A DNA stretch of 64,000 nt from contig OY762825.2 of the NCBI GenBank assembly GCA_963666425.2, positions 2,752,001 through 2,816,000 on the forward strand, in the 5' to 3' direction. Below, piece by piece: positions 27,175 through 31,076 of the stretch; position 1 is the first letter of the stretch; every line of letters begins with the position of its first letter. The stretch comes from Bacillota bacterium (lineage in GTDB: Bacteria; Bacillota; JAAYKD01). A model generated the notes under the pieces. The model made no database searches. It saw nothing but the letters and a program-made list of their open reading frames with translations, and was not told where the DNA came from. The translations under genes and the position numbers were made by a program.

Positions 27175-27250
27175 GGCACGGTAGCTCAGTTGGTAGAGCA
27201 GCGGACTGAAAATCCGCGTGTCGCCAGTCCGATTCTGGCCTGTGCCACCA
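27175..27250 (+). tRNA. tRNA-Phe(GAA)
   Basis: Anticodon arm GCGGA-CTGAAAA-TCCGC; T-loop TCCGATT (C55); encoded CCA. Confidence 0.95.
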
Positions 27251-27256
27251 TTTCGC

Positions 27257-27332
27257 GCGGAAATAGCTCAATTGGTAGAGCGCCACCTTGCCAAGGTGGA
27301 GGTTGCGGGTCCGAGTCCCGTTTTCCGCTCCA
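27257..27332 (+). tRNA. tRNA-Gly(GCC), copy 1
   Basis: Anticodon arm CCACC-TTGCCAA-GGTGG; T-loop TCCGAGT (C55); U73; encoded CCA. Confidence 0.95.
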
Positions 27333-27346
27333 ATTTCTCTTGGTAT

Positions 27347-27421
27347 GGCGGCATCGCCAAGTGGTAAGGCAAAGGTCTGCAAAACCTTTATTCCCCAGTC
27401 CGAATCTGGGTGCCGCCTCCA
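27347..27421 (+). tRNA. tRNA-Cys(GCA)
   Basis: Anticodon arm AAGGT-CTGCAAA-ACCTT; T-loop TCCGAAT (C55); U73; encoded CCA. Confidence 0.95.
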
Positions 27422-27430
27422 TATTATTAT

Positions 27431-27518
27431 GCCGGGATGGCGGAATTGGCAGACGCAAGGGACTTAAAATCCCTCGATCCAAAAGATCATACCGGTTCAA
27501 CCCCGGTTCTCGGCACCA
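27431..27518 (+). tRNA. tRNA-Leu(TAA)
   Basis: Anticodon arm AGGGA-CTTAAAA-TCCCT; long variable arm; encoded CCA. Confidence 0.96.
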
Positions 27519-27523
27519 TTCTT

Positions 27524-27599
27524 GCGGAAATAGCTCAATTGGTAGAGCGCCACCTTGCCAAGGTGGAGGTTGCGGGTCCGAGTCCCGTTTTCCGCTCCA
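27524..27599 (+). tRNA. tRNA-Gly(GCC), copy 2
   Basis: Identical to the gene at 27257-27332. Confidence 0.95.
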
Positions 27600-27605
27600 A
27601 ACAAT

Positions 27606-27682
27606 GGGGGCGTAGCTCAGCTGGTATGAGCGCTACCTTGACACGGTAGAGGTCACGTGTTCGAACCACGTCGTCCCCACCA
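27606..27682 (+). tRNA. tRNA-Val(GAC)
   Basis: Anticodon arm CTACC-TTGACAC-GGTAG; encoded CCA. Confidence 0.95.
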
Positions 27683-27728
27683 TTGTTGATTCCGGAGCTG
27701 TCCTGAACAGCTCTTTCTTTTATCGCTT

Positions 27729-27805
27729 CGGGGCGTAGCGCAGCTTGGTAGCGCGTTTGGTTCGGGACCAAAAGGCCGGAGGTTCGAATCCTCTCGCCCC
27801 GACCA
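27729..27805 (+). tRNA. tRNA-Pro(CGG)
   Basis: Anticodon arm TTTGG-TTCGGGA-CCAAA; C1-G72; encoded CCA. Confidence 0.95.
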
Positions 27806-27873
27806 CTGGAAAATGATACGATTTTGGTTTTGGCAGGGCGGTTTCGCTTTGCAGTGCGCTGAATTCGTAGAAG

Positions 27874-27916
27874 AAAAGAGCGACTAAGATACAAGTGTAT
27901 CTTGGTCGCTTTTCTT
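27874..27916 (+). terminator. Terminator of the tRNA operon
   Basis: AGCGACTAAGATAC...GTATCTTGGTCGCT followed by TTTCTT. Confidence 0.85.
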
Positions 27917-28122
27917 ATGTACCTATTTTAATTTTTATGATGAGATGATATGAATTGATAAAATGAAGGGATCATCTCTTGCAAACTGGTTGTCAATAGA
28001 GTAAAATTAATCTAATGAGATTTCTTCTGAAGTTATTCATGGATGTTGGTGATCTGCCTGTCATGATAAATGCAAATATCCTCAGGATATTTACAGATAC
28101 AAGAAGCGAAAGGAGTATGATC

Positions 28123-29637
28123 ATGAGCGACCACAAGAAACTTACAAACGAAGTCGGTGCCCCTGTTGCAGACAATGAAAACTCTATCACTGCCGGTCCC
28201 CGCGGTCCTGTTGTCATGCAGGATGTGTGGCTGATGGAAAAAATGGCTCACTTCAACCGCGAGGTCATCCCCGAACGCCGTATGCATGCCAAAGGCTGGG
28301 GTGCTTACGGCAAGCTTACCATAACCCATGATATCTCGCGGTATACTAAGGCGAAAGTTCTTCAACCCGGAGCACAAACAGAGTTATTTCTTCGTTTCTC
28401 CACTGTTGCGGGTGAACGCGGTGCTGCCGATGCAGAACGTGACATCCGCGGCGTTGCCATCAAGTTTTATACCGAAGAAGGCAACTGGGATTTGGTTGGC
28501 AACAACACTCCGACCTTCTTTATCCGCGATGTGCATAATTTCTCCGATTTAAACCGCGCCGTCAAACGCGATCCGCGTACTGGCCGCCGCTCCGCTCAGA
28601 ACAACTGGGATTTCTGGACGCTGTTGCCTGAATGCTTCCATCAGATTACAATCGTCATGAGTGATCGGGGTATTCCTGCCTCCTTCCGCAACATGCACTT
28701 GTTTGGTGAACACACCTTTTCTTTCTATAACGAGAAAAATGAGCGCGTCTGGTGTAAATTCCACTTCAAAACCCAACAGGGTATCAGGAATCTTTCCAAT
28801 GAAGAAGCCGCGAAGATCAACGGCATGGACCGCGAATATCATGGTAAGGATCTTTATGATTCCATCGAACGTGGTGATTTCCCCAAATGGACGATGTATG
28901 TTCAGATTATGAGCGAAGAACAAGCAAAAAATCACTATGAGAATCCTTTTGACATTACGAAGGTTTGGCGTCATGCCGAATACCCCCTCATTGAGGTCGG
29001 AGTGTTGGAACTCAATCGGAATCCCGAAAACTTCTTCGCAGAGGTAGAACAGGCAGCTTTTACTCCTGCTCACGTAGTCCCTGGCATTGGTTTTAGCCCG
29101 GATCGCTTCTTGCAGGGCAGACTGTTCTCCTATGGTGATGCGCAGCGCTATCGTCTTGGCGTCAATCACAATCTCATTCCGGTGAATCGTGCCAAAGTCG
29201 AGGTTAATGAATACCATCGCGATGGTGCCATGCGCGTGGATGGCAATTATGGCAGCACGCCGGCTTATAGCCCGAACAGTTACGGTGCTTGGACTGCTCA
29301 ACCCGAAGTGATGGAACCACCGCTGGATTTGGAGGGAGCTATCTACCGTTATGACCCAAAAGATGACCCAACAGACGACTGTTTTCGCGCAGGTGGTAAT
29401 TTGTGGCGTGTATTGACTGAAGAAAAGAAGCAGTTATTGATTGAAAATACTGCGGCTGATATCGCATCCGTGACGGAGAATATTAAGTACCGTCATGCGG
29501 TTCACTGCTATCTCGCCGACCAGGAATACGGCAAGCGCTTTACAAAAGCGGTTGGGCTTTGCCTGGATAAGGTAAAGATGCTGTCTAAACTAGACAATCA
29601 TGGCTTAATCCAGGCAACCCTACCTGATTCTATGTAA
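28123..29637 (+). CDS. katA: Monofunctional heme catalase (small subunit)
   Basis: [16 protein letters not shown] active-site motif; [10 protein letters not shown]; WDLVGNNTP; proximal [12 protein letters not shown]; AAAGGAG RBS before the ATG at 28123. Confidence 0.97.
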
Positions 29638-29744
29638 ATTCGAAAGCCATTAGGGAGAATTTTCAATTACAGAGGATCGAAACGCCAAGTTGAATTTTTG
29701 TCAGCGAATTGCAGGGGAAGTCAATTGAACTGAGTTGAGAACAA

Positions 29745-29785
29745 GAGAGCTGCTGCATCGAACGATACAACAGCTCTCGGTTTTT
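29745..29785. terminator. Terminator-like hairpin between katA and corA
   Basis: GAGAGCTG...CAGCTCTC stem followed by T5. Confidence 0.65.
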
Positions 29786-30705
29786 CAGATATACTTTTTC
29801 TTTTTAAAGATCCAGAGACAGAGCAGAACCGTCAGCACACTGATCAGAATCACCGAAGGATAACCGTATTGCCAGTGCAGTTCCGGCATATGTACAAAAT
29901 TCATACCATACCAGCCGACGATAAAGGTCAGCGGGGTGAAAATCGAAGTGATAATGGTGAAAACAGTCATAATATTGTTCTGCCGCAGTTCGATGGTGGA
30001 GCGATAGACTTCCCGGATCTGCATAGAATATTCCCGGATGCTCTGGGTATTGTTCTTCAGCCGCTCGGTGCGTTCCGCAAACAAACGGAAGAGATACAAG
30101 CGGTTGACCTGAAAACAGTTATTTTCGTTGTTGTGAAAGGCATGGGCAATTTCGATAATCTGGGTGTAACAATTCAATAAGGTGAGCAATTCTTTATGGC
30201 AGATGATCATTTTCTCGTTGAAGTTTTCCAGATTGCCGGCCAAGATGGCATCTTCCAGATCTGAGATGCGTTCCTCCAGGTCTTCTAAAACATCGATGTC
30301 ATCACCGGTCAGATCGTCGAAAAAATCAAACAGGAAGCGTTCAGGAGAAGCCTGCCGCCAATTTTTCGATTCGACCATACATTGCAGCAGAGGCAGCACG
30401 GTGTTTTTATTATCAACAAAGACGATCCTGCCGGGTTTGATATAATAGATGAATTTTTTATCATCTTCTGTGTCAGACAGATTCGGCATGAGAAAGGTAC
30501 CGAGATAATAATCAAAATGAGATTCGACTTTGGTCAAGCGGATGCTGTCAAAATCAACCTCACGCGGTTCTGCAAAACCACATGCTGTTTTGTAAAGAGA
30601 AAATTCCCGGGAATCCATCAACAAGATATATTTTTCTGGCCAGACAGACAGATCGGCTGTCTCCATCGGGATGAGGTAGTTTTCACCATATCCGTATAAC
30701 TGCAT
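29785..30705 (-). CDS. corA: CorA-family Mg2+/Co2+ transporter
   Basis: C-terminal two TM helices with PLTFIVGWYGMNF and MPEL motifs. Confidence 0.93.
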   Translation of the reverse strand: MQLYGYGENYLIPMETADLSVWPEKYILLMDSREFSLYKTACGFAEPREVDFDSIRLTKVESHFDYYLGTFLMPNLSDTEDDKKFIYYIKPGRIVFVDNKNTVLPLLQCMVESKNWRQASPERFLFDFFDDLTGDDIDVLEDLEERISDLEDAILAGNLENFNEKMIICHKELLTLLNCYTQIIEIAHAFHNNENNCFQVNRLYLFRLFAERTERLKNNTQSIREYSMQIREVYRSTIELRQNNIMTVFTIITSIFTPLTFIVGWYGMNFVHMPELHWQYGYPSVILISVLTVLLCLWIFKKKKYI

Positions 30706-30931
30706 GCCTCTTCACTACTTTCCGGCTTTTTTTTGAGTATACCACAGAAGAAAATAGAAACACAAGAGAAAAAGACAAAAAGCTGCCGATTTTGCGTAGG
30801 GTAGATTGTCAAACGCTGCGGATAAGCCAACAGGACAATTGTTTTACAACTGAGAAGAAATTGTATGTCTCCTAAACAATCCAGCAGAGATCGTTTTTTT
30901 GGCGGAACTGGATTTTTCTCTGTGGCTCCTC

Positions 30932-30960
30932 TTGATTTTCAGATTGACTCATGCTATACT
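30932..30960 (+). promoter_or_regulatory. Sigma-A promoter for tRNA-Thr
   Basis: TTGATT-N17-TATACT with TG extension. Confidence 0.7.
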
Positions 30961-31000
30961 ATCTCCCGTTGCAAGGCTTGCCAGACTCCTCGGCAGATAT

Positions 31001-31076
31001 GCTACTGTGGCTCAGTTGGTAGAGCGGCGCACTCGTAATGCGCAGGTCGCCGGTCCGAATCCGGCCAGTAGCTCCA
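31001..31076 (+). tRNA. tRNA-Thr(CGT)
   Basis: Anticodon arm GCGCA-CTCGTAA-TGCGC; T-loop TCCGAAT (C55); encoded CCA. Confidence 0.95.

Follow-up and report, generated by a model that had tools for sequence, protein, structure and literature searches.

Six tRNA families of a Bacillota genus encode cytidine at position 55, possibly tolerated without editing

The window analyzed here is a stretch of 64,000 nucleotides from a Bacillota genome (assembly GCA_963666425.2, contig OY762825.2, positions 2,752,001 to 2,816,000 of the forward strand), in which several tRNA genes encode C instead of the conserved U at position 55 of the T-loop (hereafter C55 and U55). ARAGORN located 12 tRNA genes in the window, and all 12 score between 45.8 and 70.8 bits when aligned with Infernal against the Rfam family RF00005; the five C55 genes score 60.6–70.8 bits, above the gathering score of 29 bits. 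In the Infernal alignment the C of each of these five lies opposite the consensus U of GGUUCgA, at positions 27229, 27311, 27400, 27578, and 31055. All five T-loops read T54-C55-C56-G57-A58 and sit in a regular arm of a 5-bp stem, a 7-nt loop (T-C-C-G-A-N-T), and a second 5-bp stem, with G53, T54, C56, G57, A58, and C61 retained. The original prediction had named TCCGA T-loops in tRNA-Phe, two tRNA-Gly, tRNA-Cys, and tRNA-Thr at these positions and TTC in the seven remaining tRNA genes of the window; ARAGORN, Infernal, and direct reading agree with both statements.

Four of the five genes belong to an eight-gene cluster on the plus strand, Asp-Phe-Gly-Cys-Leu-Gly-Val-Pro (27092..27805), where the C55 genes (Phe, Gly, Cys, Gly) are interspersed with U55 genes (Asp, Leu, Val, Pro). 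The tRNA-Phe(GAA) gene (27175..27250; 67.3 bits) has C55 at 27229 in the T-arm GCCAG TCCGATT CTGGC, and is one of two identical copies of the sole tRNA-Phe species of the genome. It is followed by tRNA-Gly(GCC) (27257..27332; C55 at 27311; GCGGG TCCGAGT CCCGT; 70.8 bits), one of three identical copies, by the only tRNA-Cys gene of the genome, tRNA-Cys(GCA) (27347..27421; C55 at 27400; CCCAG TCCGAAT CTGGG; 60.6 bits), and by the second tRNA-Gly(GCC) copy of the window (27524..27599; C55 at 27578; 70.8 bits). The fifth gene, tRNA-Thr(CGT), is found downstream on the same strand (31001..31076; C55 at 31055; GCCGG TCCGAAT CCGGC; 69.5 bits).

Over the whole assembly of this genome (G000), C55 takes the place of U55, the substrate of TruB, in 11 of 62 tRNA genes from six families, so the five genes of four species noted at first hold for the window and are part of a larger genomic set. 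All copies are affected for tRNA-Phe (2/2), tRNA-Gly(GCC) (3/3), tRNA-Arg(ACG) (2/2), tRNA-Cys (1/1), and tRNA-Thr(CGT) (1/1), together with two of the three initiator-type tRNA-Met genes, which were assigned by their C1 x A72 mismatch and the three G-C pairs adjoining the anticodon loop. As neither Phe nor Cys has any other gene, these C55 tRNAs must serve translation. The elbow bases G18, G19, G53–C61, T54, C56, R57, and A58 are present in all 11 genes. The early suggestion that C55 tRNAs share G57 and a TGGTA D-loop applies to the five window genes and does not extend to the genome: the initiator C55 genes have A57 (TCCAAAT), the D-loop of tRNA-Arg-ACG reads TGGATA, and TGGTA is also seen in several U55 tRNAs. 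U55 is also retained in a nearly identical arm, as seen for tRNA-Pro-TGG (GGGGG TTCGAAT) versus tRNA-Arg-ACG (GGGGG TCCGAAT). A general loosening of T-loops was rejected, given that the T-arm of the transfer-messenger RNA is still canonical (TTCGATT).

To place the trait, every Rfam tRNA match was located in a second species of the same genus (G001) and in two species of the sister genus (G002 and G004), and position 55 was tabulated, a comparison that the original prediction had proposed. C55 is found in 10 of 50 tRNA genes of G001, in the same six families as the 11 of 62 in G000, and in none of the 49 and 52 tRNA genes of G002 and G004. The two species of the genus share ~89% nucleotide identity and differ at 73 of 257 four-fold sites. 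The eight-gene cluster is conserved in G001 (L005), both in order and in its C55 pattern, and in G004 (L008) in order, there with TTC throughout. T55C is the sole difference between the tRNA-Phe of G000 and that of G002, and likewise between its tRNA-Thr-CGT and those of both G002 and G004; tRNA-Cys differs from that of G004 by T55C plus A57G, and the initiator change is TTCAAAT to TCCAAAT. No same-length tRNA comparison shows a change at positions 53, 54, 56, 58, or 61. Both G000 and G001 keep one U55 initiator gene beside their C55 initiator genes. At the tRNA-Phe locus, C55 occurs in two of the 30 genomes compared, both of this genus (two loci, L022 and L034, lack an encoded CCA and were read by eye as TTC), so that C55 is not common among relatives in these isoacceptors.

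Since the same families are affected in both species and none in the sister genus, the simplest reading is that the genus ancestor fixed six separate T-to-C substitutions. An exchange of tRNA 3' ends through integrated elements was provisionally set aside, as the affected genes are spaced 6–15 bp apart and the cluster that holds them keeps its synteny in C55-free relatives. Position 55 differs in none of the 40 same-length tRNA comparisons between G000 and G001, while T/C differences are found at 21 of the 257 four-fold sites; this stability argues weakly against free drift under editing, weakly because tRNA genes are strongly constrained throughout. It should be noted that one C55 initiator copy of G001 (L231, 108-184, near a contig end) also has C for T at position 33 of the anticodon loop, possibly a misassembly so close to the end of the contig.

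The assembly has an estimated contamination of 6.85% and 18 contigs, and a sequencing or assembly artefact or contamination was weighed as the source of C55. However, all 11 C55 genes lie on the 2.9-Mb main contig, other tRNAs read T in identical sequence contexts, and the second species, independently assembled, has the same C55 set. Contig pieces from two public runs of different studies (X1 and X3) span the five C55 positions of the window with zero mismatches; X1 may be the sample from which the window was assembled, whereas X3 represents a different strain, with 12 differences over 27779-31083 (3.3 kb) and the C at 31055 kept. T variants at 27578 in these runs carry flanks unlike those of the window, and we read them as tRNA-Gly genes that would belong to other organisms in mixed samples. 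With the same C in independent contigs and in a second species, an artefact was rejected, its probability being close to nil. Contigs of landfill and wastewater metagenome runs (X4, X7) also align to unique parts of 27000-31100 with few differences, indicating that close relatives of the organism occur in such samples.

A cause at the level of the DNA might be the avoidance of a TCGA or TTCGAA restriction site within TTCGA T-loops. T55C does destroy TCGA, and C55 goes with G57. On the main contig, however, TCGA is observed 9003 times against 8735 expected, and this ratio of 1.03 is the highest of all 16 four-base palindromes; TTCGAA is observed 527 times against 600 expected. Most tRNAs retain TTCGA, and the initiator change from TTCAAAT to TCCAAAT involves TCGA in neither state. 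With no genome-wide depletion of TCGA, avoidance of these sites was rejected as highly improbable.

The frequency of C55 in other bacteria was examined with a search pattern that combines a common D-arm with G53-T54-C55-C56-R57-A58 and hence covers one D-arm class; the same pattern with T also allowed at position 55 fits 13–17 tRNA genes per genome in G000 and three relatives. Among 401 genomes sampled across the phylum, eight matched. G000 and G001 have six matches each (6/17 and 6/14 of their pattern-class genes), and six of the 399 other genomes have a single one (Gly-TCC twice, Phe twice, Thr-GGT, and Lys-CTT). Outside the genus C55 would thus amount to ~0.1% of pattern-class genes, as extrapolated from six matches over 399 genomes with ~13 genes each, a figure taken from four genomes. 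Six matches per genome in G000 and G001 are far beyond chance.

In a scan of one genome per prokaryotic species, at least 119 stretches from many phyla carry the C55 pattern. Among the matches listed there are 129 C55 tRNAs: 44 Gly-GCC, 25 Thr-GGT, 11 Thr-CGT, eight Thr-TGT, seven Lys-TTT, seven Phe, six Asn, and others, with two tRNA-Cys, only three tRNA-Ala, and only two tRNA-Met. Ala and Met together account for 5–7 of the 13–17 genes of this D-arm class in G000 and three relatives. C55 is often clade-wide: the matches listed include Gly-GCC in nine Prevotella/Prevotellaceae records, Thr-GGT in six Lachnospiraceae-type records, and further groups of three Fibrobacter and three Treponema/Spirochaetaceae records. 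Five such genomes were searched whole, and each has one or two affected families; G401 encodes three Gly-GCC, G402 two Gly-GCC, and G405 two Phe genes, all with C55, in a search that sees C55 genes only and that U55 copies would escape. G57 accompanies C55 in 123 of 129 cases and U55 in 85 of 108 on the same stretches (among the matches listed, from lineages that are not independent). The repeated appearance of C55 in the same tRNA identities of unrelated lineages suggests tolerance by certain tRNA bodies; among the matches listed, C55 recurs across bacteria and is most frequent in tRNA-Gly and tRNA-Thr.

The canonical bacterial tRNA carries T54-pseudouridine55-C56, made by TrmFO and TruB (reviewed in PMC7912444). 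The tRNAs described here share with it the cloverleaf, G18–G19, G53–C61, T54–A58, and C56, and both truB and trmFO are present in the genome; base 55 alone differs. The original prediction had considered that truB might be lost. This is refuted: G000 encodes a TruB of 331 amino acids (PF01509, 173.8 bits) with an ordinary layout and no added domain, in a gene that lies between an nrnA-like gene and ribF (neighbors named by eye), and the proteins of G000 and G001 both keep the GHTGTLDP motif with the catalytic aspartate and the CSKGTYIR motif, so that a loss of pseudouridine-55 synthesis was dismissed. A C at position 55 cannot be a substrate of TruB. A genus-specific acceleration of TruB was also rejected: identity to other genera is 43–46% for G000 and 44–50% for G001, and C55-free genomes are equally distant from one another (54% for G002 vs G004, 43% for G002 vs G003). 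Nor is there a different set of T-loop enzymes, with TrmFO in five of five and a TrmI-type (GCD14) gene in none of the five family genomes searched. As far as gene content tells, no known T-loop-acting factor separates the C55 genus from its neighbors.

An editing enzyme would most plainly appear as an additional gene of the cytidine deaminase (CDA) fold. G000 has three such genes, tadA, a comEB-like dCMP deaminase gene, and cdd (PF00383; names from reading the translations), and the C55-free G002 and G004 have the same three each. A six-frame motif scan of G000 gave 10 regular-expression hits, the three known genes and seven judged unrelated by eye, so that neither profile nor motif revealed a dedicated CDA-fold deaminase that tracks C55 among G000, G002, and G004. 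A fusion of the type seen in TrcP, in which a deaminase is joined to a pseudouridine synthase, was not found in G000 either, where the four PF00849 (RluA/RsuA-type) matches lie in open frames of normal size (248–347 amino acids). The undescribed C55 deaminase that had first been proposed therefore finds no support in either gene family. TadA, whose gene adjoins tRNA-Arg-ACG, shares 82% identity with its sister-genus counterpart; only five positions depart from a residue common to the four relatives, and the two zinc-binding motifs, HAE and PCxxC, contain none of these. In G001, a 70-contig assembly, neither protein nor family search found tadA, and one tRNA-Arg-ACG gene was found there versus two in G000; we read the missing tadA as an assembly gap and not an absence.

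The tadA frame itself (G000:C1:2417785-2418282; L002 1303-1800, minus strand) overlaps the 5' portion of the tRNA-Ser(CGA) gene that lies downstream, and the C-terminal tail CARLESE that results from this overlap is conserved in G002, G004, and G007.

These data bear on the alternative of a post-transcriptional deamination of C55 to U55, possibly followed by isomerization by TruB, through an enzyme that escapes recognition or through TadA with a second substrate. The genome encodes no tRNA-acting deaminase other than TadA, and the C55 T-loop U-C-C-G-A-A matches its target, the anticodon loop U-A-C-G-A-A of tRNA-Arg-ACG, at every flanking base. This resemblance, however, is true of every canonical T-loop and hence explains nothing specific to the genus, and the target would lie one loop position earlier than A34. 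All six substitutions are T-to-C, and the frequent G57 beside C55 would also fit an editing enzyme; on the other side, the genome has no CDA-fold gene beyond those of the C55-free sister genus, no pseudouridine synthase with an added domain among its four PF00849 frames, and an unremarkable TadA. The single C55 tRNAs of at least four distant phyla would each require such an enzyme, and the C55 set is unchanged between species that differ at more than a quarter of four-fold sites, the latter being a weak argument. Post-transcriptional editing thus seems an unlikely explanation, and slightly less likely still is its more specific form, in which TadA moonlights on T-loops, or another enzyme not recognizable as a dedicated deaminase converts C55 to U and then to pseudouridine.

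Editing of genomic C at conserved U positions does have precedents. In Methanopyrus kandleri, CDAT8, which joins a CDA-fold deaminase to a THUMP domain, converts C8 to U8 in most tRNAs, and the trypanosome ADAT2/3 acts on C32. The CDAT8 case resembles ours in that, within a single lineage, a conserved structural U is encoded as C in many tRNA genes; it differs in that the CDA-fold genes of G000 are those of its C55-free relatives, with no search aimed at THUMP. TrcP of Vibrio cholerae converts C32 of tRNA-Tyr to U and then to pseudouridine, and as a case of genomic C at a position that ends as pseudouridine it provides the model for an editing hypothesis (PMC12588516). TrcP is reported to be Vibrio-specific and to modify position 32 of a single tRNA (PMC12588516), whereas here we see neither an extra deaminase domain nor an enlarged pseudouridine synthase.

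We lean toward the reading that C55 stays unedited and is tolerated in this genus. The C55 genes are genuine, working tRNA genes, and their products would be used as encoded and hence without pseudouridine 55. As the rest of the elbow is intact (G18, G19, G53–C61, T54–A58, C56, and, with few exceptions, G57), the T-loop is still expected to fold; judging from textbook tRNA structure, C55 would stack on the T54–A58 pair and lose the contact of G18 to O4 of pseudouridine 55. TruB and TrmFO presumably go on serving the remaining ~50 tRNAs. The six separate T-to-C point substitutions would date to the genus ancestor, after its split from the sister genus, with C55 now in every copy of Phe, Gly-GCC, and Arg-ACG and stable since the two species diverged. 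We favor tolerance on three grounds: no candidate enzyme was found, single C55 tRNAs occur widely and repeatedly, and a C55U transcript of Lactobacillus plantarum tRNA-Gly was glycylated equally well (PMC10464925). Of the two options put forward in the original prediction, a lineage that tolerates a C55 elbow is the one that fits better, as C55 recurs in phyla that are not related, in many cases across a clade and in every copy of an isoacceptor; the loss of truB attached to it does not hold.

Several points weigh against tolerance. That C55 is unedited is something we infer from sequence. Mere tolerance leaves six parallel T-to-C fixations in one short lineage unexplained, and the other 399 genomes of the phylum have at most one C55 pattern match each. 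The uniform direction of the six changes is what editing would allow, although T-to-C is also the commonest kind of substitution. The coupling of C55 with G57, as in the A57G that accompanies T55C in tRNA-Cys, could be structural compensation or the recognition motif of an enzyme. CDAT8 shows that a genomic C at a conserved U can be repaired by editing, as does TrcP (PMC12588516).

The parallel fixations, and the presence of C55 in every copy of three multi-copy families, might instead reflect positive selection on a C55 that stays C, either to evade a harmful reader of the T-loop such as a toxin or phage factor, or because it carries another modification or marks a lineage-specific partner. 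Contact-dependent-inhibition toxins that cleave T-loops are known, and both species have kept C55 as well as U55 initiator genes. Against this, ~50 tRNAs retain U55 in identical local sequence (tRNA-Pro-TGG vs tRNA-Arg-ACG), and no candidate toxin, nuclease, or partner was found, with no search aimed at such factors. We consider selection for C55 as unlikely as editing.

This genus is an extreme case of a rare and under-described natural tRNA variant. In our literature search, C55 as a natural feature of bacterial tRNA came up once, in passing (PMC10464925), and no paper treating it as a lineage-level trait was found; two other matches to the term were unrelated, denoting a base in a tRNA-like RNA in one case and an elbow base of a pre-tRNA in an RNase P complex in the other. 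The term has no occurrence in the main text of the T-loop modification review PMC7912444. The passing mention concerns L. plantarum, where tRNA-Gly species other than GCC (including UCC) have C55 (PMC10464925, J Biochem 2023). As in our genus, these are proteinogenic tRNAs of the Bacillota with genomic C55 in an otherwise canonical T-loop (PMC10464925). There, C55 is noted for one amino-acid family, with in vitro transcripts and no look at mature tRNA (PMC10464925), whereas here it affects six families, including the only tRNA-Phe, the only tRNA-Cys, and the initiator, and is genus-wide and absent from the sister genus. Another case of Bacillota tRNAs without U55 is the non-proteogenic tRNA-Gly of Staphylococcus aureus, described as extra copies beside the normal tRNA-Gly that lack U55 as well as G18–G19 and act outside translation (PMC13443448). 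In our genus, by contrast, G18–G19 are kept, and every copy of Phe, Cys, Gly-GCC, and Arg-ACG is C55.

A free-living genus with an intact TruB thus appears to translate with tRNA-Phe, tRNA-Cys, its main tRNA-Gly, tRNA-Arg-ACG, tRNA-Thr-CGT, and most initiator genes lacking U55. If C55 is unedited, the two sister genera, one with and one without C55, are a natural matched pair with a one-base difference in tRNA-Phe and tRNA-Thr, allowing the contributions of the contact between G18 and pseudouridine 55 and of TruB catalysis to be tested. If C55 is edited, a new editing system is at hand; should TadA be the enzyme, it would be the first T-loop tRNA editing in bacteria and the first natural TadA that deaminates C.

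The surroundings of the tRNA genes in the window show further features. Upstream of the cluster lies a promoter-like site (27031..27059, plus strand; TTGACG, 17 nt, TATAAT; 11/12), and another upstream of tRNA-Thr (30932..30960, plus strand; TTGATT, 17 nt, TATACT, with TG), both being consensus matches only. Directly after tRNA-Thr, a 12-bp hairpin followed by a T run (31083..31116, plus strand), read from the sequence and absent from the output of the terminator scan, is probably the terminator of this gene. A terminator-like hairpin is also found within the cluster, between tRNA-Val and tRNA-Pro (27694-27714). The region between tRNA-Pro and tRNA-Thr at ~27929-29778 is missing from the syntenic region of G001, with a break in the alignment at this point; it contains an open reading frame at ~28126-29638, putatively catalase-like by its translation, and looks like an insertion into the tRNA region.

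Elsewhere in G000, a single tRNA gene lies outside the main contig, on a contig of 9.4 kb (G000:C10:507-582); it encodes a second tRNA-Gly(TCC), divergent in sequence, and could come from a mobile element or from contamination. The two tRNA-Ile(GAT) genes (G000:C1:1488622-1488700 and 2714367-2714445) are 79 nt long and have an enlarged D-loop (AGTCCCGGTTA).

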